A stretch of DNA of 64,000 bases from a virus. Lineage: Duplodnaviria; Caudoviricetes. How positions within the stretch are numbered: position 1 is the stretch's first letter; every line of letters begins with the position of its first letter. Positions 8,230-29,470 of this stretch are shown here, in pieces. The stretch lies in IMG/VR virus record IMGVR_UViG_3300006226_001703, positions 1-64,000 of that record; one strand, written 5' to 3'. Made by a program: the position numbers and the translations under genes. The notes under the pieces were generated by a model that saw only the letters and a program-made list of their open reading frames with translations, had not been told where the DNA came from and searched no databases.

Positions 8230-8682
8230 CTAATCAAATAATTCTGAACTACTCAGAGCTTTCCTTAATCTTTTATTTTCAGCTTCAAGTACTTCTACTT
8301 TCTTTTCTAATTTGTTGCATATTCTGTGAAGTTTATCAACCTCTCCAAAAACTTCTTCCATAACTCTATCTACGTAATGTTCTTGCATTTCTGCAAATAT
8401 ATGTTGAATCACAGCGGCTTTATCCTCATCACCAAACACTTTCATTAAGTCGTCCATCTCTGGAACATATTTTAAGTCATTGAAATTCTTTTTCTTTTTG
8501 CTTTTTTTCGTATCGGCAGGGCCAAAATCTTCGCCATCATCATCTCCTGGACCTATCGCTGTAAGAAGCTGGTCTATCTCATCCTGAGAAAGCACTTCGG
8601 TGAAAACTATTTGATTCTTACTTTTTAGATGACCTAAATCATAGTCTGTGAGGCTATTCAAATCTATCGTTCTTTTATACAT
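8230..8682 (-). CDS. FliM N-terminal (CheY-binding) peptide-bearing protein with C-terminal coiled coil
   Basis: aa 28-43 TEVLSQDEIDQLLTAI match the FliM N-terminal LSQxEIDxLL motif; remainder is not FliM; ends ...SELFD. Confidence 0.8.
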   Translation of the reverse strand: MYKRTIDLNSLTDYDLGHLKSKNQIVFTEVLSQDEIDQLLTAIGPGDDDGEDFGPADTKKSKKKKNFNDLKYVPEMDDLMKVFGDEDKAAVIQHIFAEMQEHYVDRVMEEVFGEVDKLHRICNKLEKKVEVLEAENKRLRKALSSSELFD

Positions 8683-8707
8683 AATAGTTAGTAGCTATAT
8701 TAACCAA

Positions 8708-8733
8708 TAAAAAAGCCCCTCAAATGAGGGGCT
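8708..8733 (-). terminator. Rho-independent terminator after the 8741..9298 gene
   Basis: GCCCCTC/GAGGGGC stem (8715-8732) followed by a T-run on - strand. Confidence 0.75.
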
Positions 8734-8740
8734 GTAGTTT

Positions 8741-9298
8741 TTACTTATCAAATAAGGCTGGATTGCTACTATAATCCTGGTCACTTTGTGTGACTTGGGA
8801 TGTAGCTCCCTTACTTAATTTTGGATTGTGTCCATTTGGCACGCCGTCAGGTTTTGGGCCTGCTGATTTTCCACTGTCATAGTGTCCACCAGGTGGGATG
8901 CCATTTGCCTCTCTAAAAATCTTTTCAAAGAGTTTTGGGTTTGTGTCATAATCTTGTCCACTTTGTGTTACCTGTGATGTTGCACCTTTGCTAAGTGGAG
9001 GATTGTGCCCGGCTGGAACACCATCGTTCTTATTGTCAAGTCCACCTGTCCATTGATTTCCACCATATTTAACATCGGCTTCTCTTAGTCGCTTTTTTGG
9101 TGCTGGTCTTAAATTACCAGACTCGTCGTAAATACTTTCAAAAAGCTTTCTAAATTTTGGGTCGATTAAGTCGTCTACATTCTCGAATAAGTCTTCCCTA
9201 CCCTTGTAGATTTCATTAAAAGACCTACTGTCACCTGAGTCATAAAGTTGAATCGCTTCTTCTCTTAAATGTGTAGGTCTTGCCATCATACCCTCCAA
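8741..9298 (-). CDS. putative head/core protein with internal duplication
   Basis: two copies of GVPxGHNPxLSKGATSQVTQSxQDY; LRE sites. Confidence 0.55.
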   Translation of the reverse strand: MEGMMARPTHLREEAIQLYDSGDSRSFNEIYKGREDLFENVDDLIDPKFRKLFESIYDESGNLRPAPKKRLREADVKYGGNQWTGGLDNKNDGVPAGHNPPLSKGATSQVTQSGQDYDTNPKLFEKIFREANGIPPGGHYDSGKSAGPKPDGVPNGHNPKLSKGATSQVTQSDQDYSSNPALFDK

Positions 9299-10573
9299 TT
9301 AACCTAAAAGGCCTTTTTTCATAGAATTCTTGATACTATCAAAGTTAAGCTTTGGCTCCATGAATTGTTCTACATAAACATCAGTTACAGTTTTAACACT
9401 TTCCTTAACTTTGGTTTGTGTTGCGCCTGCACCTTGTAATGCTCCGCCTGCTTCTTTTCCAGTTGCTTTTGTTGGCCAAGTTTTACCTGGTTTTGTTTCA
9501 CCAGCTGCTCTACCTGAAGAATAACCCCCGGCTAATTGCTGTGGTGATGGAACTGGGATTGGATCTGGGCTAGTTGCATTGTCAGGATTATCTGAATTTG
9601 ATGGAGTTGCCTTTGTTGTTAAAGTTCCCATTTCTGCTGTTGATGGAATATCGAGAAAGCCTTCTTGAAGTGCAGCAATTTTTGCTTGTCTTTCAGCTAT
9701 TCTTGATTTGATTTCTTCATACTTAGAAAGTTTCTGTTTTGGAGCTCTCTTTGCAGCTTCTTCTTTGAGCATTGTGAATTCAGCTTCAGTTAGTTTGCTT
9801 GTTCCTTTGTTCTCTTGTTTCCACTGTTTGTAGTTGTTGATCATTTCCATCATTGGTGCTCCGCCCATTGCTGCTGGGTCTCCGCCTGCCATTGCTGGGT
9901 CAGGTGGCATACCATCTACAGGAGGTTGTCCTGCCATTGGGTCAGCACCCATTGGGTTTGCGCCTGCTTGTGTGAATGGTTGTAATGCAGCTGCTGCTTG
10001 TTCGATTGCGCCTTGCATTGCCATTGGGTCAGCTGCTGGGTCCATACCACCAGCCATTGCATTTGGATCAGCACCCATTGCGTTAGGATCCATTCCGCCT
10101 GCCATTGCATTTGGGTCACCTGCCATTGGGGCACCACCCATTGCTGCTGGGTCAAAACCTGCATCTGCTTCTCGAAGTCGTATGCCATTCTGTGTTGCTT
10201 CATTAAAGTTTTCTTTGAGCATTTTGATTTCTTTATAAGTTATCTTTGCTCCAGGTCCTTCAACTGCCTCTTTGAACTTCTTGTAGTTGCTAATATAAAC
10301 GTCAATTCCGTTTTCTGTTTTAGCTGGCTTAAGAGACTCTTTGATTCTCTGAAGTTCTTTTTCTGTTAGCTTGTCAGTTCCTTTGTTAGCTTTCTTCCAT
10401 TTACGATATTCGTTCACGCGTTCTTTTAATTGACTGTTGTTGGAAGTTTTGCCGCCTTGGGCTCTGAATTGTTCTCTCAAGTTAGCGAGTTCATCTTTCG
10501 TTAACTTGCCGTTGCCTTTTTCTGTGAGTTTCCATGCAGAATACTCACGTACTAAGTCTACAAATGTTTTCAT
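9299..10573 (-). CDS. putative prohead core/scaffold-like protein
   Basis: MKTF start, many L/I-x-E sites, DPxAMxG repeats, repeated YKxWK...KLTE segments; divergent from terminase. Confidence 0.45.
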   Translation of the reverse strand: MKTFVDLVREYSAWKLTEKGNGKLTKDELANLREQFRAQGGKTSNNSQLKERVNEYRKWKKANKGTDKLTEKELQRIKESLKPAKTENGIDVYISNYKKFKEAVEGPGAKITYKEIKMLKENFNEATQNGIRLREADAGFDPAAMGGAPMAGDPNAMAGGMDPNAMGADPNAMAGGMDPAADPMAMQGAIEQAAAALQPFTQAGANPMGADPMAGQPPVDGMPPDPAMAGGDPAAMGGAPMMEMINNYKQWKQENKGTSKLTEAEFTMLKEEAAKRAPKQKLSKYEEIKSRIAERQAKIAALQEGFLDIPSTAEMGTLTTKATPSNSDNPDNATSPDPIPVPSPQQLAGGYSSGRAAGETKPGKTWPTKATGKEAGGALQGAGATQTKVKESVKTVTDVYVEQFMEPKLNFDSIKNSMKKGLLG

Positions 10574-10713
10574 TTTTTTTCTCCTATATAAAGTCTTGCC
10601 ACATTTTACATTTATCGCATTTACGCATTCGTTTAGGTGTGATATTACACAAAGGCCAAAGAGCTGTGACGCAATTCTCTTATTTAATTAGTTATTTATA
10701 ATGACTAATTTAT

Positions 10714-12969
10714 ATGGGTAGAAAAACAGAAGATAATATGCCCGTTGCTTCACAAATAAGCAATCCTTTTACATTGGACTTAAATAAAATCCAAAATACA
10801 AAGATTGATGAAGATGTGTTAAAATACACATTTAAAGATGAAAAGACGTTGCATAATTTGCGTTATATAATAACTGACTTACTACAAGGCGATGGTTCTC
10901 TTGCCAAAAAAGATGAATATGCCTACTTAAACTTTAATCAATTATCTCAAGCATTAAAGTGGTTATTAGAAAATGATTTTGATGAAACTTTTAAAAGCGA
11001 GCTTTTACTTAATCCCCACATGCTTACATTTAAGACTAAACCACCAACACCTGAGGAATTCTTAACTCACAAATATATTGGTAGTATGTGTGAGTTTTTA
11101 TGGGAACCAATGAAGGAAGTTTTTATTGACTTTCTTGACCCATTTAAACCTCACCGTTCTGGAATATGGAACACATCAATTGGTAGCGGTAAATCAACAC
11201 TAACTATCTTAATCCTGTTATACATCGCATTACATTATGCACTAATGAGGAACCCGAGAAAATTCTTCAGCTTTCCAGATAGTGCTGTTTTCGTTGTAGT
11301 ACTTTGTGCTGTTACTCAGTCAAAGGCATCTGAAATTTATACTGAACCAATTCAACAGATGTTAGAATCATCTACATTCTGGAAACAGTGTAGAACAGCC
11401 CAGGAGATGTTATCTGAGGACAGACGTTTAATTGAAAACGATAACGTTGATTATATACCCTGGAGACCAGCCGGTAAAACTGGTAATACAGTAATAACTA
11501 CTGGGAATAATCTAAACTGGAAGCAGATATCTCAAGCAAACGCTCTTTTGGGTATGCAAATCTTAATGGGAGCAATGACTGAAATTACGTTCTTCCTCGA
11601 AGCAGGAAAAGGTTGGACTAATGAGAAACTTCTAACTTTCTTTTCCAAATTACGACAAAGAATTAGCAACCGTTTCAAAAACAACTATTATGCTCGCTTC
11701 ATACTTGACTCTTCACCATCAACATTAGAAGACGCAATTCAGAATTGGGTTACACATGATGCGCCAAAGAATATTGAAAATCTCGTTTGGACTGGTAGTA
11801 GATGGAAACTATACCCATGGGAATTTCCTGACTTTATTGATTATGACAAGAGCACTAAAGAGTCAAAAGAGCATCATAATTTTGATGTTGGTTTTCAACT
11901 CTTCAAAGGTGGCAATGGTAAACCCCCAGTAGTTTGTGAGATGGAATCTGAAGCTGCTCTTTATGAGGATGCCGACAAAGTTTGGTGTCCAATTAAGCAA
12001 GTAGCATCACAGGGTATCACAAACTTTTTAGATAAGGCACGAGAAAATCCAATTGAGTTCATGAAAGACTATGCAGGCATTCCTGCCGGTCAAGCTGATA
12101 GATTATTCTATCAAGGACATTGGATAGAGAATTGTTTTGCAAATGGAATGAAAAATGTTTATGGGTCAATTATAGCATTAGCTGATGAAGAGCCTGAACA
12201 TCTTATTTGGAACCAAGTTCATCATATGTTCTTCAATAAGATTCTAAACAAATACTACTATTACTATGAGCCCGACATTCCTCGCGTAATATCTGTTGAC
12301 CAATCAAAATCAAAAGACTGTACTTGTATCGCTATGAGTCACATTGAAAGAGACCCAACTAGAATTGACCCTTATACTAACCAACCAATTATCGTTTATG
12401 TTACTGACTTTACTATTGTGTTAGTCCCAAAAGGCGGGCTTATCAATTTAGATGCAGTTAAGTTCTTCATTTATGACTTGAGAAGAATTGGCGGACTAAA
12501 CATCAAACATGTTTCCTTTGACGGTTATCAATCTGAACCAACTAAACAGTTCCTCAAGAGAATTGGCTTCACAGTTGATTATGTTTCAGTTGATATGAAT
12601 AACGAACCATACCATAACTTCTTTGATCTCGTCATTCATAATCGTTGGCATTGTGGTAAGAACATATTTGTCAAGAACAATATGAAAAGTCTACATCAAA
12701 CTAAAAAGAGAAGTGGCGCAACTAAAATTGATCACTTTCCTGGAGACTTGAATTATGACTGGCAAAATGGAAACTGGGAGACATGTCAAGCTGGTGTTAA
12801 TGCAAAAGATACAACTGACGCAATAGCAGCAAATATTCAACTCATTGACACTTATGCAACTGAGTTTGTTCCTTCAAAAATTTGGAGAAGTGATGCTGTG
12901 TTTGAAAGGTCATACGATAACTTGAAAGAGAAAAATCAAGCAGTAATGGACAAATACAACTTCATTTAA
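10714..12969 (+). CDS. terL: terminase large subunit
   Basis: Walker A SIGSGKST, ILDSS coupling motif, RNase H-like acidic motifs SVDQSKSKD, SFDGYQS, KDTTDAIA. Confidence 0.85.
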   Translation: MGRKTEDNMPVASQISNPFTLDLNKIQNTKIDEDVLKYTFKDEKTLHNLRYIITDLLQGDGSLAKKDEYAYLNFNQLSQALKWLLENDFDETFKSELLLNPHMLTFKTKPPTPEEFLTHKYIGSMCEFLWEPMKEVFIDFLDPFKPHRSGIWNTSIGSGKSTLTILILLYIALHYALMRNPRKFFSFPDSAVFVVVLCAVTQSKASEIYTEPIQQMLESSTFWKQCRTAQEMLSEDRRLIENDNVDYIPWRPAGKTGNTVITTGNNLNWKQISQANALLGMQILMGAMTEITFFLEAGKGWTNEKLLTFFSKLRQRISNRFKNNYYARFILDSSPSTLEDAIQNWVTHDAPKNIENLVWTGSRWKLYPWEFPDFIDYDKSTKESKEHHNFDVGFQLFKGGNGKPPVVCEMESEAALYEDADKVWCPIKQVASQGITNFLDKARENPIEFMKDYAGIPAGQADRLFYQGHWIENCFANGMKNVYGSIIALADEEPEHLIWNQVHHMFFNKILNKYYYYYEPDIPRVISVDQSKSKDCTCIAMSHIERDPTRIDPYTNQPIIVYVTDFTIVLVPKGGLINLDAVKFFIYDLRRIGGLNIKHVSFDGYQSEPTKQFLKRIGFTVDYVSVDMNNEPYHNFFDLVIHNRWHCGKNIFVKNNMKSLHQTKKRSGATKIDHFPGDLNYDWQNGNWETCQAGVNAKDTTDAIAANIQLIDTYATEFVPSKIWRSDAVFERSYDNLKEKNQAVMDKYNFI

Positions 12970-12972
12970 AGC

Positions 12973-13012
12973 AAAAAAAGGACCCCGCCATCAACGATGG
13001 ACAGGGCCCCCA
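12973..13012 (-). terminator. terminator between convergent terminase and 13031..13870 genes
   Basis: GC-rich imperfect hairpin around CCATC/GATGG with a T-run on - strand. Confidence 0.6.
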
Positions 13013-13030
13013 AAGGGAGGCTAGTTTAGT

Positions 13031-13870: not shown

Positions 13871-13877
13871 GTTATTC

Positions 13878-13930
13878 TCTCCCTTTAACTTGATAATAAT
13901 ATATAAGATGGATAGAATTGATGTTCAAAA
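13878..13930 (-). promoter_or_regulatory. class I (early-type) promoter/RBS block TTTTGAACA-N14-CTTATATATTA
   Basis: 34 bp (13878-13911) identical to 33397-33430, with the same spacing to TTTTGAACA. Confidence 0.7.
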
Positions 13931-13948
13931 CTTCTACTAATTCTTATA

Positions 13949-14344: not shown

Positions 14345-14769
14345 AAGCCCTTGAATTCAGGGAGATCCTTTTCTAAAAAAGTCATTTGAAGATCCATAAT
14401 ACCAAGTTGGACTAAACTTTCATCAACTGATTTATCTTCGAGAATAACTTCTTCAGGTAATTTTCCTTCTGAAATTAGCCGCTTAATAAACTGAGGAAAA
14501 AAGTTAGCAGCTTCTTCTGCTAATCCAAAAACTTCTTTACTGTAATATGGAAATATAAAACGTTGTTCTGAAATCCTTTTCGCAACCTTTGGGCATAACA
14601 ACTTAAACTTCAAACTATTAAGTTCATCCACTTCTTCAATAACCGGTTTGCCCAAAAAGACTACACATTGATAGAGTGCAGTTGAAGCTGCTCTTCCACC
14701 TCTTTGTGATTGTTCCTTATCTCGTTGTATCAATTTACTAAAATCTAATTTTTCACTCATATTTGCCAT
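14341..14769 (-). CDS. hypothetical protein
   Basis: 142-aa ORF coupled to GroEL stop. Confidence 0.7.
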   Translation of the reverse strand: MANMSEKLDFSKLIQRDKEQSQRGGRAASTALYQCVVFLGKPVIEEVDELNSLKFKLLCPKVAKRISEQRFIFPYYSKEVFGLAEEAANFFPQFIKRLISEGKLPEEVILEDKSVDESLVQLGIMDLQMTFLEKDLPEFKGF

Positions 14770-16418
14770 TAATTTATACCGTCCTCATTTAATACACTAT
14801 CTAAAGATTCTATATACATATTTGGAGCGTCAGTTACTATTACAGTTTCAACACTCATAAATTGTTCAGTCATATTAGTTGCATATGTTACACTGTTCTT
14901 AATTACTTCATAGGGGTCAATTATCCCAGATGCAACCATATCAGTTAAGTTCCCTTCTTTTGAATTATAACCACTCTTATTATCTAATGCTAAAATTTCC
15001 GGTATGATAGACTCATGATCAGCACCAGAAGAATTGATTAGAATCTTAGCAGGCGCTTTTATCGCATTAAGAAATGCCTTAACAGCTGCAACATGATTTA
15101 AGCCAACGGATAATTCTTTTCCACCTTTGTAAGCAATTCTCAATAATGGAGTTCCACCACCAGGAATAAAACCACCAGTTAAAGCAGCTCTAACTGCATT
15201 GACAGCATCCTCATATCTATCTTTCTTTTCTTCTAATTCAGTTAACGTAATACCACCAACATAAATTGTTGCAATGCCGCCAGTCATTTTAGCAATTCTT
15301 TCTTTTATCGTTTGTAATTGATATCCAGAATAGCCAATTTCAGTTCCTTCATAATCAACTTTAGCTCTTAATTGTTCGATATGTTTGTTGTATCTTTCAT
15401 CATCAAAGTGAGCGCCAATAATTGCTGTCTTATCTTTGTTAATAATAACTTGTGTTGATGTACCAAGATATTCTTCCTTATAATCATTTAACTCAAAATC
15501 ATAATACATAATTTTAGCATTAGTCATAACAGCTAAATCTATCAAATTATCATTTATGTTTTCACGAGACACACCAGGTGCTAAAACTAATGAACCAATT
15601 ACAGTTTTCTTATTTAACATATCACGAAACCAAGCCATTACTTCATGAGAAAAATCTGGTGCAATTATTACGATTGGTTTTTTGTTTAATTGGAGAGGCT
15701 GAATTATCAGTTGTAAATCTTCGACATCATTTAACACTTCAGATGAGAACAGGAAGTTGGGCTCTTCTAAAATGCATTGGTCATGGGATGCATTGATACA
15801 TTCACTTGACAAAAATCCTCTATCAAATTCTAATCCAGATCTCGTTTTAACAGCTGTTTCACCTTTACGAGATAAGCTATCTGCTAGAGTTACAATGCCA
15901 TTATCACCGATGGAGATAAAAGCTTGCTTAACTGTTTCAGCAATTTCTAAATCGTTATTAGCCGAAGTTTTCGCTATATTGAAAATATCATGTTCATTTT
16001 CTATTTCATGTTTATAAGTTACTAATTCATTTAACACATAGTCACTAGCAATTTGAAAACCTTCTTTTAAGTGATTGATGTCAATACCTTTCACTAAAAG
16101 TTTGTAAGCCTCTTTACATAATTCAGCAGTCAAAATAGTTACTGATGTTGAACCATCACCACCCATAAAATTGCTTTTACCAGCAGCCTCTTTGATTAAC
16201 ATTGCTCCAAAGTTTTTGGCCTCATCTGAAAACTTTAATTCCTTTGCAACAGTTATACCATCTTTTGTAGTTCTAAATGAGCCGCCTTTGTCGAATGCTG
16301 CTGTTCTACCTTTTGGTCCATAAGTTGATGCGACAGTTTTTGATACTTCTAATATTCCATCGAGAACTCGTTGTCTACCTTCGTTACCTCTAAATATCTT
16401 TTTTCCATACGTTGCCAT
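14769..16418 (-). CDS. groEL: chaperonin GroEL
   Basis: TYGPKGR, TKDGITVAKE, GDGSTS, FDRG, IKERIAKMTGG, YEDAVNAVRAA, PGGG, GIIDP motifs. Confidence 0.95.
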   Translation of the reverse strand: MATYGKKIFRGNEGRQRVLDGILEVSKTVASTYGPKGRTAAFDKGGSFRTTKDGITVAKELKFSDEAKNFGAMLIKEAAGKSNFMGGDGSTSVTILTAELCKEAYKLLVKGIDINHLKEGFQIASDYVLNELVTYKHEIENEHDIFNIAKTSANNDLEIAETVKQAFISIGDNGIVTLADSLSRKGETAVKTRSGLEFDRGFLSSECINASHDQCILEEPNFLFSSEVLNDVEDLQLIIQPLQLNKKPIVIIAPDFSHEVMAWFRDMLNKKTVIGSLVLAPGVSRENINDNLIDLAVMTNAKIMYYDFELNDYKEEYLGTSTQVIINKDKTAIIGAHFDDERYNKHIEQLRAKVDYEGTEIGYSGYQLQTIKERIAKMTGGIATIYVGGITLTELEEKKDRYEDAVNAVRAALTGGFIPGGGTPLLRIAYKGGKELSVGLNHVAAVKAFLNAIKAPAKILINSSGADHESIIPEILALDNKSGYNSKEGNLTDMVASGIIDPYEVIKNSVTYATNMTEQFMSVETVIVTDAPNMYIESLDSVLNEDGIN

Positions 16419-16420
16419 AT

Positions 16421-16807: not shown

Positions 16808-16822
16808 ATACTTTTATATTAA

Positions 16823-18709: not shown

Positions 18710-18964
18710 TTAGTCATCTTTTCTTTCGGAAGGAGAAAAAACTTTAGTTACCCTAATTCCATAGTTCTCGTCAATACTTACGACTTCACCTTCTGCGTAC
18801 TTAACGTTATTCACATAAACTGTAACAGGCTCGTCAGCATTTTTATCCAATTCGACAATAGTACCCACGCCAAATTGAAGGATATCTTTCACATTCTTTT
18901 TTACTGAGCCCAACCTTGCTGTTAGTTCAACGTTAACATTCTGTATGTTTTGATAATTATCCAT
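18710..18964 (-). CDS. fliN: FliN/FliY C-terminal (SpoA/FliMN_C) domain protein
   Basis: VELTARLG..KKNVKDILQFGVGTIVELDKNADEPVTVYVNNVKYAEGEVVSIDENYGIRVT is a textbook FliN domain. Confidence 0.9.
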   Translation of the reverse strand: MDNYQNIQNVNVELTARLGSVKKNVKDILQFGVGTIVELDKNADEPVTVYVNNVKYAEGEVVSIDENYGIRVTKVFSPSERKDD

Positions 18965-19007
18965 TATTTTAGATTAACTTAAGCTGCCCCAGCTCAACTT
19001 TTAGTTT

Positions 19008-19496
19008 TTAGTCCTTTTTCTCTATTTGAAGTCCACCAAAGATTGGGATCTTTTTAGGTGCTACCTCTTCTCGAGGAGGAATTGTGATAGTTAACAAACC
19101 ATTGTCGAATGTTACTTTGACTTGTTCTCTATCGAAATATCGAGGATCTACTTTCCAATTGGTTTCGACTCTCTCGATTCTCTTGAGTCCAAGTTGTAGA
19201 TAATAGTTGTTACTATCCTCTTTTCTGTCGTCTACTTTGTTTGGCACATCTACAACCAACTTAAGATTATCTCCGTCAAATGCGAGATTAATCCAGTCCT
19301 CGTGAATACCTGCCAATGCGGCTTGAATTGTTAGAGTCTTACTCTTTTGGTCAATTATGATATTAGTTGGTGGAAATGGTTGTGAAGCTATTTGCTTGTT
19401 AAACCTTGATGGTTGTAATGCAGATTGAAATGCAAAAACGTCGTTGAACATATCGTCGAAAATGTCGAATATGTCCCTATAGTACTTATTACTCAT
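19008..19496 (-). CDS. small heat-shock protein Hsp20
   Basis: FPPTNI...QAALAGI...VKVTFDNGLLTITIP alpha-crystallin pattern. Confidence 0.85.
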   Translation of the reverse strand: MSNKYYRDIFDIFDDMFNDVFAFQSALQPSRFNKQIASQPFPPTNIIIDQKSKTLTIQAALAGIHEDWINLAFDGDNLKLVVDVPNKVDDRKEDSNNYYLQLGLKRIERVETNWKVDPRYFDREQVKVTFDNGLLTITIPPREEVAPKKIPIFGGLQIEKKD

Positions 19497-19599: not shown

Positions 19600-19604
19600 T
19601 ATTT

Positions 19605-19862: not shown

Positions 19863-19896
19863 TGAGATATCTCCTTAATAAATAGTTAGTTTCTTT

Positions 19897-20496: not shown

Positions 20497-20540
20497 ATTA
20501 AGTCCTCCATTACGATTTATTTCTATATTAACTAAATAAT

Positions 20541-21902
20541 ATGAACAATTTAATCACGACTATTGACAAAATTAGTGAAGTTTTAGAAAGCAAACTAAAA
20601 TTTAACGATAAACAACTAGTCTATTGTAGAGAAGATAATCGGCTTTACATGAAGGATAATGAGAATTTGATCGACATCCTTCTTGAACTTAGAGAACTCG
20701 TTAGTAGACCAATTGAATTTAGAACGCTAATTCCAGATTATGAAAACATAGGCTCAGAAAACATATTTACACAGAACTATAATGATAGCTTGCCTGACGG
20801 ACATCCAATCATACCATGGAATGCAAACCCACTTTCATATAAGGCTAATCATAATGGATATGTCCTCATTACTATTGAAGGCTTAACTAATTTTAGAATT
20901 TGCCACAATGGAACGAAAATAATTGAAAAAGAAGTTGACAAGAAAAAACCAAATACTTCAATTCTTTATGCCCAAACTTTTGAAATGGCAAAAGATGACG
21001 TTATTGAAGTGCATCGATTAAATGGTGTTGATAATATTGCTGATGAAGATGACACAGCAAAATATAGCTGCTATTGGGTGCCACCTCGTGTAATGCACAT
21101 GGAAAGCGGCTACATTAGAGATGAGAAAAAGTTAGTAGATTTAGTTTATCCAATTGGCTCAATTTATATCACAGTTAACCCAATCAATCCACATTATCTT
21201 TTTGGCGGTGTTTGGAAAATGTTTAGTCAAGGAAGAACACTCCTTGGTTTTAATGACAACATTGAAGAATGGGATGTTAAAAGAGATGGTAGTTTACAAA
21301 CTAGAAGATTATTAGATACTGGTGGTCGTGAAAGAGTTAAATTAGAGAAGCCACATATGCCAAACCATGACCATGATTTTAGAGAACATAACCCAGAAGA
21401 TACTCACACTGATTTTAGATATCACAAACATACTTTTGATGCGCATGAATATGAGACAACTAAAGTCAATGTTGTTCATACTTGGGAAAATGCAGCATCA
21501 GTAGAAGTTGTCAGTAATATTGATAAAAAAGAAAATTATGGACTAACTAAAGAAATGTGGCGAGTTAGTGAAAATCAAGATTTTACAGTAGATTCTAATA
21601 ATAAATTAATGGCATTTGGTGATGATGTTACAAGAAATACAGTTCACCGTGTTAAGGGTGATAATTTAGCTCATAGAGACTCCTTTGATTTGGAAACAGG
21701 AACTTGGGCTGATGATATTAAATTGGTTAGAGACAACTATTATGCTGGTGGTGATGAACCAAGGGCTGAATATGAAACTGAAAATACAAGAACATCTGAT
21801 TACTCACATATACCACACAATTTCAAAGCTGATGGTGGTGATAGACCACATGAAAATATGATGCCTTATGTAGTAACTTATATTTGGGAGAGGAAGGAAT
21901 AA
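20541..21902 (+). CDS. baseplate/tail-collar protein (T4 gp10 C-terminal-like)
   Basis: YPIGSIYIT..NP..LFGGVW...QGRTLLG and HENMMPYVVTYIWER. Confidence 0.75.
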   Translation: MNNLITTIDKISEVLESKLKFNDKQLVYCREDNRLYMKDNENLIDILLELRELVSRPIEFRTLIPDYENIGSENIFTQNYNDSLPDGHPIIPWNANPLSYKANHNGYVLITIEGLTNFRICHNGTKIIEKEVDKKKPNTSILYAQTFEMAKDDVIEVHRLNGVDNIADEDDTAKYSCYWVPPRVMHMESGYIRDEKKLVDLVYPIGSIYITVNPINPHYLFGGVWKMFSQGRTLLGFNDNIEEWDVKRDGSLQTRRLLDTGGRERVKLEKPHMPNHDHDFREHNPEDTHTDFRYHKHTFDAHEYETTKVNVVHTWENAASVEVVSNIDKKENYGLTKEMWRVSENQDFTVDSNNKLMAFGDDVTRNTVHRVKGDNLAHRDSFDLETGTWADDIKLVRDNYYAGGDEPRAEYETENTRTSDYSHIPHNFKADGGDRPHENMMPYVVTYIWERKE

Positions 21903-24900
21903 TGATATCAATTATACAACTAATAAATGACGAACAATCTCTTATAGAGGGTGATGTAGTTCTTAAAAATGGCCAATTAGCTTGGACAACTCAACCAAAT
22001 AATGAAGGTGAACTTTTCATTGGAACAGAAGACGGCTATGTTAAAGTAGCTGTTAGTGTTGCTTTTAGTTTAAGATTAGAACAACTCATTGGCGAATTAC
22101 AAGATGTAGTTGAAATTATTGGCGATGATATTGAATTAAAAGTTGAACAAGCTAAATTGTTACTTCAAAAAATTAAAGAAGCTAGAGATTTTATATTAGA
22201 AACAATTGAAACAGAAATAACAAATGTAGAAGCTAGATCTAAGACTTATACAGAAACTTATGTAGATGCTAAAACAGCTGATAACATTTACATGAATTCT
22301 AACAAAGACATAACTATAACAACTTATATAAACAACATCAGAGATAATTTACAGGGACAAATAGATAATTTAATTACTGATTTTGCTAGTTTAGATGATA
22401 ACATTGATGAAAGAATTAGAGTTGCTAAAAAGTCAGTTGATGATAGAATTGATGCATTAAATGGTGAGACATTACCAGCTAATGACACAGATGAAGATTA
22501 TAGTGTTAATGATTTTATTAGAGATTCAATATCTGGTTCAAATACTTATACAAATACTAGACTTTTAGAGTTTACTAAAATTCCTTTAAGAAAAGATTTT
22601 GAATCTGAACTTCGTGGAAATATAGCACAAGGTTATGAACCAGTTAGACACTGGAAAGAAGGCAAGGCCGGGGATTTCTATTTTGTTAAAGAATTAGATA
22701 TTAGATATCCTGGTTTCAAAGGAATAATGTGGTGGAATCCAAATGGTGGTGGTGATGGAGATGGAGATTGGGAAACTGAAATGGACCAGTCACTTATCCC
22801 AGATGGTGTTACACTTTTAGTTGGTGATGACGAAAAAATAAAAATAAATCCAAACTCACAGATATTTATTGATATTAAAAATTATAATGATACAACTAAT
22901 ACAACAACACTTACTCAAGCAAAAGCATATGTAGATAATTTATTATTACAAAATCTTAAATTACCTGGATTTGTAAATTTTGAATCTGATTTAATAGGTA
23001 TGGGTTGGGACCATGAGGGCACACCAAAAGGTGGTGTAGCTTTTGAAGAAGGAAATCCTGGCGATAATTATTATATTAGAGAGCTTGATTATACTGATAG
23101 AGAAATTAAAGATTTAACTAAAAGAAGACAAGGTAGAGCTTGGTGGAATCCTAAAAAACCAAGAACAGATACGATTGATGGTAATTGGGAAATTGTTCCT
23201 GATAAACAACTTTTTCCAGATAGTATTACAACTAAATTAGACGGTAATGGACAAATTGCTGTTATTGAAGATGCTGAATATCTTGAAACAATAAGAGGAA
23301 GTATAACTAGCGTAGATAGTAAATTTGTTACTATAACAACAAACTTAAATACTAAAATTGATACAAGAGAAGCAGCTATTCGTTCAGATGCAGCTTTAAT
23401 GAAAACTAATCTTGAAAATCGAATGGACGGTCTTGATTTAGCAACAAATGAAAAATTTGAAGGGGAAATTGATAGAGTTGAAACTGAAAGTAAGACTCGT
23501 GATGGAAATCTAAATACAAAAATTGAAAATGTAGATATTGCACTTAGAACTTTTGCAACACAACATATAACTAGAATCAATGGAGAAATTGCAGAATCAA
23601 ATGGTAGAATAGATGATGCTGAAGATGAAATAGACAGAGTTGAAACTGAAAGCAAAGAACGCGACACTGCTCTTGATAATAAAATATTAGCATTAAGTGG
23701 CGAAAATATTCCTGGCTGTTTAGATGAAGATACTATACAAGATGCTAAGGATATGACAATCAATGAATATACTAGAAGTTTATTCGAAGAAGCAAAAGAA
23801 CATGCTGATGAAATTGTTCTAAATAACTTAAGAATTCCTGGAAAAATAGATAGAGAATCTAGATTAAGAAATAAAGATGCAATTACAGGTATCTATTATA
23901 ATATGCATCAACAAACAGGTTACACAGGAGAACCACCAAAACATGGTGAAAATTATATTGTTGAAGATTTAGACATTACATATCCTGTTCATGGAGATGA
24001 AAGAAAACATCAAGGTAAAATGTGGTGGAACCCAGATAAAAAATATACTGGTAGTGATATTGAAGGTAAATGGGAACTCGTAAGGGACGAAAAAATATTT
24101 GCAGACGATGACACAATAATAACAAATGACACAACTGGTCTCATTGAAGTCAACATAGAGGCTGAATATCTAGGGAATATTAGAAGTTCTATAAGTGACA
24201 CAAACACAAGAATAGACGAACTTCATGGTAGTAACTTAAATATTGATGATGAAGATGAAACTAAAACTATTAAAGAATATGTTGATGATTCTATAGAAAA
24301 TTTTGATATTGATTTAACAGAAAGATTTTTATCATTCACTAAAGTTCTAAAACGAACTGATTTAGAATCTAATTTCAGAGGTGATGGGGGAACTAAACCT
24401 TTTAAAGATGGGGAAATTGGTGATATTTATATTGTTAAAAACTTAGATGTATCTCATCCAGGATTTAAAGGAATAATGTGGTGGAGATCTGGTACTGATT
24501 TAGGACCAAACGGAAAAGGCCTTTGGGAAATTGAAAAAGATGAAACTTTATTACCTGATGAAGATGAGCTTATTTATAAAGCTGATGGCACAATTACTTT
24601 AAATCCAGATTCTGAATTATTACAAGCAATATATGCACAAATTACTACAGAAGTTGGAGAATTAAAAACTGAAATAGAAGAAGAAATAATTGAACCTATT
24701 ACTACAGATATTACAACATTAGAAGGACGAGCTAATGATTTAGATGAAGCTATTGAAAGAATAGACGAAACTATTGAAGAATTAGATGGTAATAAAATAA
24801 AAGCAACATTTGAGCTTGATGAAGATAGAGAAGATGCTTATGGTAAAACTATAAATGAATATATTGAATCATTGTATCAGGCAGCTCTTGATCATACTAA

Positions 24901-26683
24901 TGGCATAATTTTGCAGAATCTTAAAATTCCAAAGTTTATTGATAGAGAATCTCTATTAAGAAGAATTGATGATAATACTGAAGAATATTATGACCTTCAT
25001 ACAACTCCAACATTTGATGGAGATATGCCAGAACCTGGCGATAATTATATCGTTGGCCACCTTGATATAACTTATACAGATAATCCTTATAAAGGACTCA
25101 TGTGGTGGAACCCAGATGATTCTTATCCAAAAACACCAAATATAAAGGGAAGATGGGAAGCAGTAAAAGATGAAAGATTATTTCCAGATGGATTTACAAC
25201 TAAGTTAGACAATGGAAGAATAGCAGTTGATTTTAGTCATACTTATTTTACTGAATTGGAATCAGAACTTGAAGGATTACATGAAGATGTAGAAAGAATT
25301 GATGAAAAATTAAATGATATAGATGAAGATATAGGTGAAATCAACGGAAGAATTGATGGTGTCGAGGAAGATATAGAGACACGTGAAAGTACACTACGCG
25401 GAGAAATAACAGAGCATGTTAGTACTCTTGACGGAAGAATTACTACTGAAGTTTCTACTATCAACGGAAGAATTGATGGTGTCGAGGAAGATATAGAGAC
25501 ACGTGAAAGTACACTACGCGGAGAAATAACAGAGCATGTTAGTACTCTTGAAGGGGAAATTAGTAGACTTGATGGAGATATAGATCGAATTGATAATGAT
25601 ATTGACGGAATAAATCAACGAATAACTTCAGAAGTTACAAATGGTGTTAACAGAAATAATACTACTAACACAAAGTTTGATACAATAACAGATACAATTA
25701 TTTCAAATGCTAATCTTGATAAACAAAATAGATTCCGCATTGTAGAAGATAATACTGAATTAAATGCAGCTACACCAAAACAAAACAAAGACTTGTTTTA
25801 TAAGAGAGATACATCAAGATTATTTGTACAAGATGATGACAAATTAGTTGAATTATATCATCCAATAAAAGCATTCGATGATGTTAGTGAAATAACTACT
25901 GACACATTACATCGAAAAGAATTGGGCTATAATAAAGATAACAGAAGACTTTATTTACATGATAGAGACAAAATTGAAGAATTATATACTCCAAGAATTC
26001 CAAATAGAGCTTCACATGTTATTAGCTATGGTTTTAGTCACACATTTACTGGTAGAAATCAATTATTTGGCGGACAAAATCAACCAATAAACTTAAGTGA
26101 AGGTCATGTCCAAGCAAGATTTGAAGGACCAGAGGCTGGTTCATTCTTTACTTTAAACTTTCCGCAAGATCATTTTTGGATTAGATTCATTTGGTCTAAC
26201 TTAGTAACTGAAACTGAATACACACCTTTTAGAATGGCTTTAGCTTGTAAAAACTTTGATCAAGGAGAACATGCTGAAGTTATAATTAACACAGTTACTT
26301 ACAACTGGAATACTCAAACATCTAATCCTCCTGGATATTTAGAGCAGGGGATTGATGGTGGTATCGGTAACTTTATGACAACTTATTTGAGAAGAATTCA
26401 AGCTACACCAACTACTGATAGTGCATGGCAGTCAATTAAAGCTAATAATATTTTCTCAGTACTTTATGATATGATTGATATTAAGATTAGATTTATTAGA
26501 TCAAATATGTTCTATTATTTCAGATGTTTCCCAGATGTAATAAGTTATAAACCTGATGCTGTGTTACCTGATGAAGTTAGAGTGCCAAGGTTAAACTTCT
26601 ATGTAGATTGTTACAAACCAAATGCATTGCCACAGGCTGACCCATTTATTGATATCGTTTATAACGTTCAAGATTTTAATTAA
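21884..26683 (+). CDS. long modular tail fibre-like protein (start probably 21902)
   Basis: follows baseplate gene; five WW(N/R)-containing repeat modules separated by acidic coiled coils; distinct C-terminal domain. Confidence 0.65.
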   Translation: MGEEGIMISIIQLINDEQSLIEGDVVLKNGQLAWTTQPNNEGELFIGTEDGYVKVAVSVAFSLRLEQLIGELQDVVEIIGDDIELKVEQAKLLLQKIKEARDFILETIETEITNVEARSKTYTETYVDAKTADNIYMNSNKDITITTYINNIRDNLQGQIDNLITDFASLDDNIDERIRVAKKSVDDRIDALNGETLPANDTDEDYSVNDFIRDSISGSNTYTNTRLLEFTKIPLRKDFESELRGNIAQGYEPVRHWKEGKAGDFYFVKELDIRYPGFKGIMWWNPNGGGDGDGDWETEMDQSLIPDGVTLLVGDDEKIKINPNSQIFIDIKNYNDTTNTTTLTQAKAYVDNLLLQNLKLPGFVNFESDLIGMGWDHEGTPKGGVAFEEGNPGDNYYIRELDYTDREIKDLTKRRQGRAWWNPKKPRTDTIDGNWEIVPDKQLFPDSITTKLDGNGQIAVIEDAEYLETIRGSITSVDSKFVTITTNLNTKIDTREAAIRSDAALMKTNLENRMDGLDLATNEKFEGEIDRVETESKTRDGNLNTKIENVDIALRTFATQHITRINGEIAESNGRIDDAEDEIDRVETESKERDTALDNKILALSGENIPGCLDEDTIQDAKDMTINEYTRSLFEEAKEHADEIVLNNLRIPGKIDRESRLRNKDAITGIYYNMHQQTGYTGEPPKHGENYIVEDLDITYPVHGDERKHQGKMWWNPDKKYTGSDIEGKWELVRDEKIFADDDTIITNDTTGLIEVNIEAEYLGNIRSSISDTNTRIDELHGSNLNIDDEDETKTIKEYVDDSIENFDIDLTERFLSFTKVLKRTDLESNFRGDGGTKPFKDGEIGDIYIVKNLDVSHPGFKGIMWWRSGTDLGPNGKGLWEIEKDETLLPDEDELIYKADGTITLNPDSELLQAIYAQITTEVGELKTEIEEEIIEPITTDITTLEGRANDLDEAIERIDETIEELDGNKIKATFELDEDREDAYGKTINEYIESLYQAALDHTNGIILQNLKIPKFIDRESLLRRIDDNTEEYYDLHTTPTFDGDMPEPGDNYIVGHLDITYTDNPYKGLMWWNPDDSYPKTPNIKGRWEAVKDERLFPDGFTTKLDNGRIAVDFSHTYFTELESELEGLHEDVERIDEKLNDIDEDIGEINGRIDGVEEDIETRESTLRGEITEHVSTLDGRITTEVSTINGRIDGVEEDIETRESTLRGEITEHVSTLEGEISRLDGDIDRIDNDIDGINQRITSEVTNGVNRNNTTNTKFDTITDTIISNANLDKQNRFRIVEDNTELNAATPKQNKDLFYKRDTSRLFVQDDDKLVELYHPIKAFDDVSEITTDTLHRKELGYNKDNRRLYLHDRDKIEELYTPRIPNRASHVISYGFSHTFTGRNQLFGGQNQPINLSEGHVQARFEGPEAGSFFTLNFPQDHFWIRFIWSNLVTETEYTPFRMALACKNFDQGEHAEVIINTVTYNWNTQTSNPPGYLEQGIDGGIGNFMTTYLRRIQATPTTDSAWQSIKANNIFSVLYDMIDIKIRFIRSNMFYYFRCFPDVISYKPDAVLPDEVRVPRLNFYVDCYKPNALPQADPFIDIVYNVQDFN
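25340..25551 (+). repeat. 92-bp perfect direct repeat, 120-bp period
   Basis: 25340-25431 identical to 25460-25551; encodes INGRIDGVEEDIETRESTLRGEITEHVSTL twice. Confidence 0.9.
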
Positions 26684-27375
26684 GATTTTTTGGGGTCTAG
26701 TAATAGACCCCATTTTTTTGTTTCAGTATCTAATTCAATTATTTTATCGTGCTTTCCAGTATCAATAAAAATCAAACTATCTTTATTGTCACTTAATCTT
26801 TCACGAGGATTATCATCACTTTCAGTATGCCCAACAACTTGATTATAACCTTTAATAGCAGTACGAATTAAAGCACCAGGTCTAATCCAAAGAGGGCCTT
26901 CATTTAAGTTGTTGCCATACCCGTCTGGTCCAACCCATCTGAAGAAGTTGGGCCTTTCCTTAAAGAGTTGATTGATTTCTTGAGGCTCTTTAATGCCTGC
27001 TGAACGCATCCACTTATATGAGACACCACCGTGGCTAAAAATATAGCTATCAAAAATAAAGCAAACATCAAATACATTTTTATTTTCATCAAAAAATTCC
27101 TTAATATCTATAGCATGAGTAGGTTGATATCCACTGCATCTTTCATCGAGATAATATGATGTGTCATGATTAGCCCAACATAAACAAACTTTTTCTGGAT
27201 TTGATCTCTTGAACTTAATTATCTCTTTTGCATTGCCCATTTGTTTTGGCCATTGATTTGTCCAAGTGTCAAAAATATCTCCGAGGAAAACTATCTTGTC
27301 ATAAGAGTTAATGAGTTTAATTGTTTTTTTCCAGTGTTCAGATTGATGAATATCTGGGATTGCTATTATTTTCAA
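26680..27375 (-). CDS. calcineurin-like metallophosphoesterase
   Basis: PDIH, LGDIFD, WANHD, SHGG, VVGHT motifs. Confidence 0.85.
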   Translation of the reverse strand: MKIIAIPDIHQSEHWKKTIKLINSYDKIVFLGDIFDTWTNQWPKQMGNAKEIIKFKRSNPEKVCLCWANHDTSYYLDERCSGYQPTHAIDIKEFFDENKNVFDVCFIFDSYIFSHGGVSYKWMRSAGIKEPQEINQLFKERPNFFRWVGPDGYGNNLNEGPLWIRPGALIRTAIKGYNQVVGHTESDDNPRERLSDNKDSLIFIDTGKHDKIIELDTETKKWGLLLDPKKS

Positions 27376-27737
27376 AGTGTCTCCAATAATTTTAATTGTT
27401 CTCTTAATCTATTAGTTAATTCTCTCTCATGAGCAATTTCTTGTTCATATTCATTAATCATTTTACTCATAGCATCTTCTAAAGCTTTGTACTTTAAAGT
27501 TATCATTGTCATTTCAACTCTCATTCTAGAAGCATCTTGTGAAGCCTCACCACCATTAGTAAACACAGCGAATCTGTCTGGTCCACCACCAGTAAAGCCT
27601 CCGCTTTCATGTTCTTTAAATGCTCTAATATGTGCAATTTCTTGTAAGTCTTCAACTGGGATATCTATAATCTTATCTAATCTATCATCAATGAGCGAGT
27701 TATCTTTTAATGCAATTGACAACGCATATTTAGCCAC
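27372..27737 (-). CDS. hypothetical coiled-coil protein
   Basis: 121-aa ORF, GTG start. Confidence 0.65.
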   Translation of the reverse strand: MAKYALSIALKDNSLIDDRLDKIIDIPVEDLQEIAHIRAFKEHESGGFTGGGPDRFAVFTNGGEASQDASRMRVEMTMITLKYKALEDAMSKMINEYEQEIAHERELTNRLREQLKLLETL

Positions 27738-27891
27738 TTAATTTTTCCAATATGAAAACAAAGGCAACAATTACAGCAAATACTAAAACTATATGATACA
27801 ACATAATACTGCCCAAATTAAGCATGTCTCTTAAAGTCCACTTAATTTTTCCGCTCCAAGTTACTTTGTAATTTCCTTTGTCAATAGTCAT
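27730..27891 (-). CDS. small membrane protein (53 aa, not in ORF track)
   Basis: hand translation MTIDKGNYKV...LYHIVLVFAVIVAFVFILEKLSG; fills the gap with overlaps. Confidence 0.5.
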   Translation of the reverse strand: MTIDKGNYKVTWSGKIKWTLRDMLNLGSIMLYHIVLVFAVIVAFVFILEKLSG

Positions 27892-28115
27892 TTCTTTTCT
27901 CCCACAATTAGTCTATCGCTTTTTCTTTTATTTCCATATTTGTCAGCATCTTCTTCATATGCTTTTAATCTGTTCTCTATCTCTTTTTGAATTGCCAAAG
28001 TTAGTGTGTCTTGTCTAGACTCTTCTAATGTTTGGCTAGCTATTTTTATCGTGTACCATTCTACTAAAGTGCGGACGCTATATCTGTGTAAATACTTGAT
28101 ATCCGTTATGTCCAT
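27888..28115 (-). CDS. hypothetical protein
   Basis: 75-aa ORF. Confidence 0.65.
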   Translation of the reverse strand: MDITDIKYLHRYSVRTLVEWYTIKIASQTLEESRQDTLTLAIQKEIENRLKAYEEDADKYGNKRKSDRLIVGEKK

Positions 28116-28119
28116 AATC

Positions 28120-28410
28120 TTAATAAGAAACTCTTAACCAAAGGTCTTTGTCTTCTGACTCCTCTTCATCTACTTTGTAATTAGCTTTTTCTAATTCATC
28201 TTTTACAATATCAAATGCCAAATCTGTTATTTTGTTGACTGTAATTCTAACAACTAATTCATTATTTGATCTGGCCAATTTAAGTTTTTCATTTAGTAAG
28301 CAAATTATGTCACTTGCTTCCTTAATAGCTCGCTTATCATAATTGTCAGTTGGAAGTTGTAAAAGTTCATCTCTACTTACAAGTTTTGGCCCACCATATT
28401 TTAGCGTCAT
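28120..28410 (-). CDS. hypothetical protein, paralog of 30923 and 31317 ORFs
   Basis: shared LVSRDEL...NEKLKLAR...ELEKANYKV pattern. Confidence 0.65.
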   Translation of the reverse strand: MTLKYGGPKLVSRDELLQLPTDNYDKRAIKEASDIICLLNEKLKLARSNNELVVRITVNKITDLAFDIVKDELEKANYKVDEEESEDKDLWLRVSY

Positions 28411-28718
28411 TTTATTCTCCTTACTTGACTTATTGGAATCGGTGTAAAGACTTTAAATTCTTGAATTACATCATTAGGCCCAGCTTCTTTTTGCTCTTTT
28501 AAGAAATTAACATCAAACTGGTCAAATGGTCTACCTTTAAATTCGTAATCAACTTCTAAAAGCACATCAGTTTTCCAACCATTGAAAGAAAAGTTTTCTC
28601 CCCAATCAACTTCGGATAACGAAATAAACCCATAATTCCCGCCAAGCCACCCATCTAGACAACCTGACATTTGAATTTTTCTCCAATTTTCTTCTGTAGT
28701 TCTATGTAATAATTTCAT
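28407..28718 (-). CDS. possible ADP-ribosyltransferase-fold protein
   Basis: LLHRT...ISLS...QEFKVFTPIP matches the H-x-T / S / E layout of small ART-fold proteins. Confidence 0.4.
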   Translation of the reverse strand: MKLLHRTTEENWRKIQMSGCLDGWLGGNYGFISLSEVDWGENFSFNGWKTDVLLEVDYEFKGRPFDQFDVNFLKEQKEAGPNDVIQEFKVFTPIPISQVRRIK

Positions 28719-29119
28719 CTTATCTCAAATTGTAAATCATTATAATGGTTGTCATACTTCAGAATATTATGAAGTTGGTCTAACCATTTTTTATCGCCAA
28801 TCATTAATGGAGTTATTTCCCAAGCATTTTTATTTTGAACTAAATCTTTAGCTTCTTTTAAGCCAAATTCTTTTACTTCTAAATTGCTATATTTTTCTCC
28901 AAACTCTTTGTGTAAGTTTCTAATAGTTTTAATAACAGATATTGTGTACTCTTCATTAAATGATTTTAAGAATAAAGCTGCTTTTTGAGATTTAGTTTTT
29001 TCAAGTTTTCTGTTAACTTTTAATTCGTAACCTCTGTCAACTAATTGTTGAGATAATTCGTAAAATTCATCACTGTCTAATTCATCAAATAATTCTAATA
29101 TATGTAGAACGTCTTTCAT
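28715..29119 (-). CDS. ribosomal protein bL12 C-terminal-like domain protein
   Basis: ISVIKTIR...GLKEAKDLV resembles bL12 KIxVIKxVR...GLKEAKDLVE, with an insertion. Confidence 0.6.
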   Translation of the reverse strand: MKDVLHILELFDELDSDEFYELSQQLVDRGYELKVNRKLEKTKSQKAALFLKSFNEEYTISVIKTIRNLHKEFGEKYSNLEVKEFGLKEAKDLVQNKNAWEITPLMIGDKKWLDQLHNILKYDNHYNDLQFEIR

Positions 29120-29122
29120 ATT

Positions 29123-29470
29123 TTAATCCAATAAATGTAAAAAATTAGCTCGTAAGTCTTGCCATTCCTTTTTATTTAATAAGCTTCCCAATATATGTAA
29201 AGTCATTCTTGGGTTATTTCCTTTTTGAATTGATAGCACTGCTTCCTTTTTAATTTCGTCAAGCTCACTGTTTATCAAAGGTTTTAATATCTTCTTAACA
29301 TCTTTACTATCAGTTCCATCAATAACAAATCTCAAACCATACCAAAAAATATCTCTATTGTTTACTTCTTCAACATGTTCGTTAGTTTCATCCTCCAAAG
29401 CCAAGAGCCCCTCTCGTCTTGCCTTTTCCGATAGACTTAAAGCCTTAATAATAAAATTTATCTTTTCCAT
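29123..29470 (-). CDS. soluble MotA/PomA cytoplasmic-domain-like protein (no TM helices)
   Basis: SEKARREGLLALED...GLRFVIDG joined directly to AVLSIQKGNNPR, which in MotA are the cytoplasmic loop and C-terminal tail. Confidence 0.8.
   Translation of the reverse strand: MEKINFIIKALSLSEKARREGLLALEDETNEHVEEVNNRDIFWYGLRFVIDGTDSKDVKKILKPLINSELDEIKKEAVLSIQKGNNPRMTLHILGSLLNKKEWQDLRANFLHLLD

Follow-up and report, generated by a model that had tools for sequence, protein, structure and literature searches.

Cells possess small soluble proteins, among them EpsE of Bacillus subtilis and the PilZ proteins YcgR and MotI, that stop or bias flagellar rotation by acting on the C-ring or where FliG meets MotA; these brakes or clutches are host-encoded and controlled by signals. 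Among phages, the blocking of pili and the use of flagella as receptors have been described. Here, we describe a phage locus at which three small minus-strand genes each encode a single interaction surface of the flagellar switch or stator. The window analyzed comprises positions 1 to 64,000 of the 86.6-kb IMG/VR record IMGVR_UViG_3300006226_001703 (G000), and the sweep of its open reading frames (ORFs) for flagellar families covered the whole 86.6 kb. The surfaces in question correspond to known contacts of the motor. The N-terminal peptide of FliM is bound by phosphorylated CheY (CheY-P). Val-113 and Ala-93 of FliN are in CheY-P contact, Val-111 to Val-113 of FliN bind FliH, and R90 and E98 of MotA contact D289 and R281 of FliG (PMC6700473). 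In full-text searches of the literature on phage flagellar or motility genes and on termite-gut phages, we came across no phage reported to carry genes for parts of the flagellar motor itself, in keeping with the first-pass annotation of this sequence, which had known of no such system.

The three genes, with lengths in amino acids (aa), are the following:

8230..8682, minus strand: P0001, 150 aa; FliM N-terminal CheY-docking peptide, tether, and long helix; member of a small phage family
18710..18964, minus strand: P0002, 84 aa; stand-alone FliN/SpoA domain; member of a phage-specific FliN clade
29123..29470, minus strand: P0003, 115 aa; MotA loop and C-terminal tail, without membrane helices

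The first-pass annotation had assigned one flagellar interaction surface to each of these ORFs and had placed them among phage genes, and both statements are borne out by what follows. Each protein keeps one binding surface and lacks the parts needed for the job of its parent, so that it can only compete, and competition is the simplest mechanism. We lean toward the view that the three proteins form an expressed decoy set directed against the chemotaxis input, the C-ring, and the rotor-stator contact, through which the virus probably interferes with the swimming and steering of its host.

A FliM docking peptide in a protein that is not FliM

8497..8601, minus strand: FliM-derived segment of P0001, residues 28-62 (alignment A3, with FliM of three Treponema/Spirochaetaceae genomes)
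8233..8427, minus strand: long C-terminal helix of P0001, residues 86-150 (AlphaFold2; weak leucine-zipper-type Pfam matches)

Residues 28-62 of P0001 align with residues 2-35 of FliM from termite-gut Treponema. The first 16 residues of the segment, TEVLSQDEIDQLLTAI, are identical at 16/16 positions to residues 2-17 of Treponema FliM, and the docking peptide LSQxEIDxLL is present in a form (LSQDEIDQLL) that is likewise identical to that of Treponema FliM. The homology continues past the docking motif and through the FliM linker; residues 28-60 read TEVLSQDEIDQLLTAIGPGDDDGEDFGPADTKK, and FliM of termite-gut Treponema and Spirochaetaceae starts MTEVLSQDEIDQLLTAINAGETEPEDFKPAADTRK. In profile searches, residues 29-60 matched positions 1-29 of the NCBIfam FliM model TIGR01397 (E value, 1e-3), and the profile of the P0001 family in turn retrieved FliM N termini (E values of ~1e-10 to 1e-4).

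Neither the FliM middle domain, with its FliG-binding GGxG motif, nor the C-terminal SpoA domain was found in P0001 (no match to PF02154 or PF01052), and hence this protein is not a FliM; its score against TIGR01397 is 18.3 bits, compared with a cut-off of 219.6. Unlike in FliM, the peptide is internal: 27 residues precede it, and beyond it come a disordered tether, a long helix, and, at the C terminus, an invariant LFD. The AlphaFold2 model places a helix on the docking motif (residues 33-42), a disordered stretch at residues 46-65, and one long helix at residues 86-149 (predicted local distance difference test [pLDDT], >90). The C-terminal helix is probably a coiled coil.

A search with the family profile detected homologues in the related phages G001 (69 kb), G007 (329 kb), and G008 (261 kb) and in about 10 further clusters, with the peptide and the C-terminal LFD kept. 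Overall identity within the family is just 27 to 36%, yet the docking peptide and the terminal LFD (L148, F149, and D150 of P0001; alignment A5) are invariant. Among 1.84 billion representative proteins searched, ~15 full-length members of 92 to 147 aa were recovered, all of which have the docking peptide, a middle motif, the helix, and a C-terminal (E/D)LF(D/E) or GGGDL(F/L)ED. Two of the members, P0123 and P0128, are encoded in the same gene order, upstream of RNA ligase, HAD, and WGR genes, and the long contexts of G001, G007, G008, P0123, and P0128 share phage synteny either with these RNA ligase/HAD/WGR genes or with G000. Four metagenomic proteins of ~95 to 103 aa (P0129, P0136, P0142, and P0157; L155:298-585) consist of three tandem FliM-type CheY-docking peptides, L(S/T)QDEI(N/D)QLL, and nothing else; the one contig examined for them is 4 kb long.

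A stand-alone FliN with substitutions in a putative binding patch

18776..18778, minus strand: Ser63 of P0002, aligned with Val-113 of E. coli FliN (alignment A8)

P0002 is a complete SpoA domain of the kind found in FliN and at the C terminus of FliY, and it scores above the curated cut-offs, both for Pfam FliMN_C (PF01052; E value, 3.7e-25; profile positions 2-71 of 73; 88.1 bits against a cut-off of 23.8) and, just, for NCBIfam fliN (TIGR02480; 85.3 bits against 84.05). The best-scoring NCBIfam model is the FliY C terminus (NF005995, positions 298-375 of 376), and P0002 shares 52 to 53% identity with the SpoA domain at the C terminus of Treponema FliY. The presumed Treponema host encodes this longer FliY, not a bare FliN. 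By comparison with NF005995, the 84-aa phage protein lacks the N-terminal region of FliY, with neither its CheY-binding peptide nor its CheC-like phosphatase domain found.

Homologues of 83 to 88 aa and 64 to 76% identity are present in G001, G007, and G008, where they are syntenic, lying between an Hsp20 gene and a large gene of unknown function. The G000 and G007 copies of the small FliN share 65% identity, a value above that of three quarters of the shared genes. In the conserved hydrophobic patch through which E. coli FliN binds CheY-P and FliH (L68, A93, and V111-V113), L68, A93, V111, and V112 are kept in P0002, V113 is replaced by Ser, and the neighbors of A93 are polar. These changes recur across the clade. 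In alignment A8, the Val-113 position is S or A in 7/7 phage stand-alone FliNs and V in 7/7 host-type SpoA domains. The latter include E. coli FliN, Treponema FliY, and a cellular paralogue, as well as two phage-encoded domains, namely the FliN of the more distant phage G009 and the FliN-type end of FliM from G007. Around Ala-93, all seven phage proteins read K-N-A-D/N, compared with (K/G)-L-A-G in the host-type domains.

The region with the small FliN gene is flanked by genes for GroEL (14769-16418, minus strand; PHROG, 4e-104) and for an Hsp20-type small heat-shock protein (19008-19496, minus strand). FliN matches in deposited phage records were judged unreliable; they come from contigs of 1.5 to 17 kb and from a PhiMa05-type genome with a motA-motB-fliL-fliM-fliY cluster, a type of genome that has been challenged as cellular (PMC13623518) and that gave the sole "phage" record found with a cluster of motor genes. 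FliN-like ORFs occur in the deposited "phage" records MW495066.1 and MT835480.1; one, from a Microcystis phage, belongs to the PhiMa05 type, and the other is a 75-kb human fecal record.

A soluble MotA domain drawn from a cellular family

29267..29458, minus strand: part of P0003 homologous to the loop between transmembrane helices (TM) 2 and 3 of MotA (alignment A6, with E. coli MotA)
29417-29419, minus strand: R18 of P0003, aligned with E. coli MotA R90 (A6)
29393-29395, minus strand: E26 of P0003, aligned with E. coli MotA E98 (A6)
29156..29266, minus strand: part of P0003 homologous to the MotA tail after TM4, EAVLSIQKGNNPR... (second HMMER domain and A6)

P0003 matches the cytoplasmic domain of the MotA stator in both sequence and predicted fold. 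Its residues 5-68 match positions 77-135 of 259 in the NCBIfam MotA model NF005997 (E value, 1.5e-10; 40.5 bits against a cut-off of 340); a Pfam scan gave no match, PF01618 and PF20560 included. The family profile aligns with two separate segments of PDB entries 8UCS and 6YSF, residues 78-140 (TM2-TM3 loop) and 220-254 (tail), and when P0003 is set against E. coli and spirochaete MotA (A6), TM1-2 and the TM3-4 hairpin have no counterpart in it. The maximum Kyte-Doolittle score of P0003 over 19 residues is 0.40, so that it has no membrane helix; unlike MotA, with its four membrane helices, it hence has no ion channel or MotB partner. The AlphaFold2 model is of high quality (pLDDT, 93.9; predicted template modeling score, 0.87), and in a Foldseek search against the PDB, the best ten matches were all MotA or PomA chains, headed by 8UCS_C, from a stator bound to FliG (template modeling score, 0.77). 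In A6, R90 is invariant and E98 nearly so, and the equivalents of both are kept in P0003.

In the first-pass annotation, the soluble MotA domain had been seen as a phage mimic. P0003 is indeed a host-derived motor piece, but its soluble form is not an invention of the phage. It has 111 relatives of 95 to 199 aa (most of 112 to 166 aa), of which several carry the JGI name MotA and two come from genomes of Spirochaetia and Treponema, and it is up to 59% identical to Spirochaetia/Treponema proteins. In the tree, the soluble family is split from true spirochaete MotA with a support of 98, and P0003 groups with P0016 (support, 91) inside the soluble family (clade support, 97). P0016, encoded on a 3-kb contig (L096), is the one other copy in a phage context and, like P0003, lies upstream of a metallophosphatase gene. 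The nesting of P0003 within the soluble cellular family indicates that the phage captured a gene that was already soluble, without its partner.

As a rule, members of the family are cotranscribed with a FliG_C protein or fused to one. That partner is evident on the cellular contigs, where the soluble MotA-domain gene overlaps by 4 nucleotides (nt) the end of a gene for a FliG_C protein of 170 to 178 aa. In one cellular cluster, genes for a FliM paralogue and a FliG_N/M protein come next, and the module is sometimes found beside extra FliM and FliG paralogues or a chemoreceptor. In fused proteins of 633 aa (Spirochaetia bacterium, L016:1453-3354) and 805 aa (Treponema primitia ZAS-10, L018:937-3354), a FliG_C-like domain is combined with leucine-rich repeats and two soluble MotA domains. 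These overlaps and fusions are an independent line of genomic evidence for joint action of the domain and FliG_C-type partners. With respect to the R90 and E98 contacts, the soluble FliG_C partners retain the matching E-D pair. T. primitia also encodes two FliM paralogues, of 478 and 498 aa and with FliN-type C termini, beside a WYL-domain gene.

Neither of the two phage copies was found to have an adjacent or fused FliG_C partner. For P0003, the upstream ORF (29476-30069) was considered as a diverged FliG_C partner and ruled out (BLASTP E value, 24; no PF01706 match). Thus, P0003 shares the loop-plus-tail architecture of this uncharacterized spirochaete family, in which it nests, but differs from it in the lack of a FliG_C partner gene, a shortened N terminus, and a 7-residue deletion. 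Scans of IMG/VR, whether queried with P0003 itself or with the profile of its family, and tblastn against deposited phage genomes gave no relatives of P0003, and a MotA-like gene is missing from G001, G007, and G008. The homologues of its two flanking genes overlap each other in G007, and P0003 is therefore a lineage-specific insertion. The ORF directly downstream of P0003 (28715-29119, minus strand), 43% identical in G007, has a weak match to the ribosomal L7/L12 C-terminal domain (Pfam E value, 2e-4, below the cut-off).

The cellular family suggests a different target for P0003, namely the soluble FliG_C/MotA-domain module of the host, with the phage gene as a half-system carried to neutralize or hijack the other half and its link with the other two genes a coincidence. 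Such a role would fit the position of P0003 within the soluble family rather than with true MotA, the observation that the domain in cells always stands beside or is fused with a FliG_C protein that P0003 and P0016 lack, and the origin of the gene by insertion in one lineage. We nevertheless regard it as unlikely. PADLOC models match neither half, with no credible defense-system match for P0001 to P0003 or for the cellular FliG_C/MotA-domain pair; the FliM and FliG paralogues or chemoreceptor sometimes found beside the cellular module point to motility; and the equivalents of R90 and E98 are kept in P0003, so that the motor FliG stays a possible target.

Phage context and relatives

The G000 record is 97% coding and contains genes for RIIA, a clamp loader, Dda helicase, a gp46-like nuclease, and T4 RNA ligase 1, together with a gp10-type baseplate protein, an amidase, GroEL, DnaB, and homing endonucleases. 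Its GC content is 34%, and that of the three motor genes is 31 to 36%. G007, an IMG/VR genome of 329,018 bp with terminal repeats that is rated complete by CheckV, matches 70 of the 111 ORFs of G000, with collinear gene order and a median orthologue identity of 50% (upper quartile, 57%; 62 pairs). A quick comparison of the genome ends did not recover the terminal repeat that IMG/VR reports for G007. CheckV puts the completeness of G000 at 26%, which, for 86.6 kb, agrees with a genome of ~330 kb. DNA 100% identical to G000 is present in JGI and ENA assemblies, including one 183-kb contig; every other copy of this phage is 100% identical, and the next relatives are too diverged for an analysis of nonsynonymous and synonymous substitution rates (dN/dS).

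With its hallmark genes for replication, structure, and lysis control and its collinearity with a complete genome, G000 is part of a T4-like jumbo phage. The same collinearity and the identical DNA in other assemblies, along with the matching GC content, show that it is neither a host chromosome nor a chimera, the two origins that the first-pass annotation had named as fatal to its proposal.

Besides P0001 to P0003, we found no further flagellar families in the 86.6 kb of G000, which represent about one quarter of the genome, and neither FliG nor FliM (including PF01706) anywhere in it. The earlier statement that no other flagellar genes are present thus holds for this fragment but not for the clade, since G007 and G009 carry full-length FliG and FliM. 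The FliG of G007 (404 aa) comprises N, M, and C domains, and its FliM (465 aa) has a FliN-type C-terminal domain; the two are encoded beside a GGDEF protein and between homing endonucleases, at 26 to 29% GC, as in the rest of the genome. In G009, a fliM-fliN-fliG cassette has phage genes on its flanks, and the switch genes have 41 to 50% GC, this being a GC-richer phage. These genomes belong to the same or a related jumbo-phage clade and draw on the same host-derived gene pool, presumably with the same target. Their switch proteins are, however, whole or nearly so and able to assemble, whereas P0001 to P0003 are single-surface fragments. We found no published account of phage-borne full-length FliG/FliM switch genes.

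The GGDEF protein of G007 is a diguanylate cyclase (L122:8284-9441, plus strand; Pfam, 3e-40) encoded ~3 kb upstream of FliG and FliM, and it offers a second possible route to motility control. In the FliG of G009 (L147:5516-6730, plus strand), a hydrophobic segment resembling a membrane helix, YYAIIISIAGLLIAFFIASYVIG, precedes the FliG domains.

The FliM-peptide protein and the small FliN are both present, and syntenic, in four related phages that share ~50% protein identity. This pair is a conserved feature of the clade. More tentatively, we suggest that the ~330-kb jumbo-phage clade of termite-gut spirochaetes may carry a modular toolkit for the takeover of host swimming, made up of a CheY-P sponge and a FliN blind to CheY-P and FliH, to which some lineages would add a soluble stator domain for rotor contact and others whole FliG and FliM-FliN proteins and a diguanylate cyclase.

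Promoter-like motifs

8697..8704, minus strand: promoter-like motif GTTAATAT, 22 nt before the P0001 start codon
8714..8733, minus strand: terminator-like hairpin, just upstream of the P0001 promoter motif
18971..18978, minus strand: promoter-like motif GTTAATCT, 14 nt before the P0002 start codon
29473..29480, minus strand: motif ACTAATTA, 10 nt before the P0003 start codon

In the 86.6 kb, there are 27 copies of the promoter-like motif GTTAATNT, and for 19 of these, a minus-strand ORF begins no more than 45 nt downstream. The motif precedes P0001, P0002, the clamp loader, and Dda helicase (example copies at 8697-8704, 18971-18978, and 36889-36902, minus strand), and its presence before both motor genes and replication genes suggests that P0001 and P0002 are expressed together with the replication genes, with a predicted early/middle timing. 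Given the hairpin upstream of its promoter motif, P0001 would open its own transcription unit. Motifs of the form ACTAANTA, related to the ACTAATTA found before P0003, precede 15 ORFs, including the baseplate gene and large plus-strand genes.

How the proteins may act on the motor

From the homology, architecture, phage context, conservation, and origin of the three proteins, we infer their binding, their timing, and their net effect on swimming as follows. Three host-derived proteins would be expressed during infection, each presenting one binding surface of the motor. P0001 would offer the CheY-P docking peptide of host FliM on a flexible tether with a probably oligomerizing helix, and most likely soaks up or relocates CheY-P, thereby uncoupling the motor from chemotaxis signaling. 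P0002 is a minimal FliN whose SpoA fold should still be able to pair with FliM/FliY in the C-ring and whose CheY-P/FliH patch is altered; most likely, it replaces FliY subunits with signaling-blind or export-blind ones. P0003 keeps the two charged residues that contact the torque helix of FliG and most likely binds a FliG C-terminal-type domain. This could be that of the rotor FliG, for which it would compete with the stators, or the host soluble FliG_C partner of its own family. The infected cell could be stopped or could be running without steering, and immobilization is one of several possible outcomes. In this, P0003 and P0002 may resemble EpsE, YcgR, and MotI in what they do to rotation; those proteins are, however, unrelated to them in sequence and fold, whereas the phage-encoded ones reproduce surfaces of the motor itself.

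Several points weigh against a decoy set of this kind. A CheY-P sink would be expected to favor steady running, and a rotor-binding MotA decoy to act as a brake. A single MotA cytoplasmic domain may bind FliG weakly, stators being pentamers. The proposed function does not account for the first 27 residues of P0001 or for its terminal LFD, and the host is a presumed one, with termite-gut spirochaetes of the Treponema type assigned from sequence similarity. P0003 is missing from the complete G007 as well as from G001 and G008, and the three genes are not an obligate set. The first-pass annotation had pictured a phage aiming at three successive points of one pathway and had proposed co-occurrence in related phages as a check. 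The idea of competition at these points agrees with our reading, and the FliM-peptide protein and small FliN do co-occur; a single conserved three-point set, in contrast, is unsupported, P0003 being an insertion.

Rather than sabotage, the genes might serve maintenance. As with psbA in cyanophages, the phage would replace fast-turnover C-ring parts so that the host swims through a long infection after its own expression has stopped, with the small FliN as a working subunit and the other two proteins tuning the motor. FliM and FliN exchange in working motors, the small FliN retains a complete and well-conserved SpoA fold, and the full-length FliG and FliM of the relatives, with or without FliN, could build a working switch. 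However, neither P0001, which lacks the middle and C-terminal domains of FliM, nor P0003, which lacks membrane helices and an ion channel, can replace its parent, and the host has a longer FliY rather than a bare FliN. In addition, the phage FliNs systematically alter a residue needed for CheY-P and FliH binding (PMC6700473). We therefore consider maintenance improbable.

It seems very improbable that the proteins serve the biology of the phage itself, for instance as SpoA/coiled-coil scaffolds in the assembly of the virion or of a replication compartment, with the host motor untouched. The SpoA fold is a general dimerization module, and P0002 lies between the Hsp20/GroEL chaperone genes and a large unknown protein. 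Such a role would, however, leave unexplained the exact host CheY-docking peptide, the FliG-contact residues of MotA, and the whole FliG and FliM in relatives. The least credible account, that of functionless passengers in the form of recently captured host fragments or an assembly chimera, can draw on the "provirus" tag that IMG/VR gives the G000 record and on the doubtful standing of the only deposited "phage" records with FliN matches (tiny contigs and the PhiMa05-type genome; PMC13623518), but it is opposed by a GC content of the genes near that of the contig and unlike that of the G009 switch genes, by the identical DNA in JGI and ENA assemblies, by synteny in four phages at ~50% protein identity, by the clade-specific substitutions in the phage FliNs, and by the genes' own promoter motifs.

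If the decoy reading is correct, a virus reprograms motility and chemotaxis from within the motor, and viral manipulation of bacteria extends beyond metabolism to steering and swimming. This would take place in a gut ecosystem where the motility of spirochaetes decides their position and survival. The three proteins would then be naturally optimized probes of the CheY-P/FliM contact, the FliN contacts with CheY-P and FliH, and the stator/rotor contact, which are hard to study in spirochaetes. P0003, moreover, ties a phage gene to a large and unstudied cellular family of soluble MotA-domain/FliG_C proteins (>100 clusters), on which it would provide the first functional handle.

Other features of the window

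A 92-nt repeat, seen as extra BLAST pieces, occupies positions 25340-25431 and 25460-25551, 120 nt apart, within a plus-strand ORF of 1,599 aa (21884-26683).

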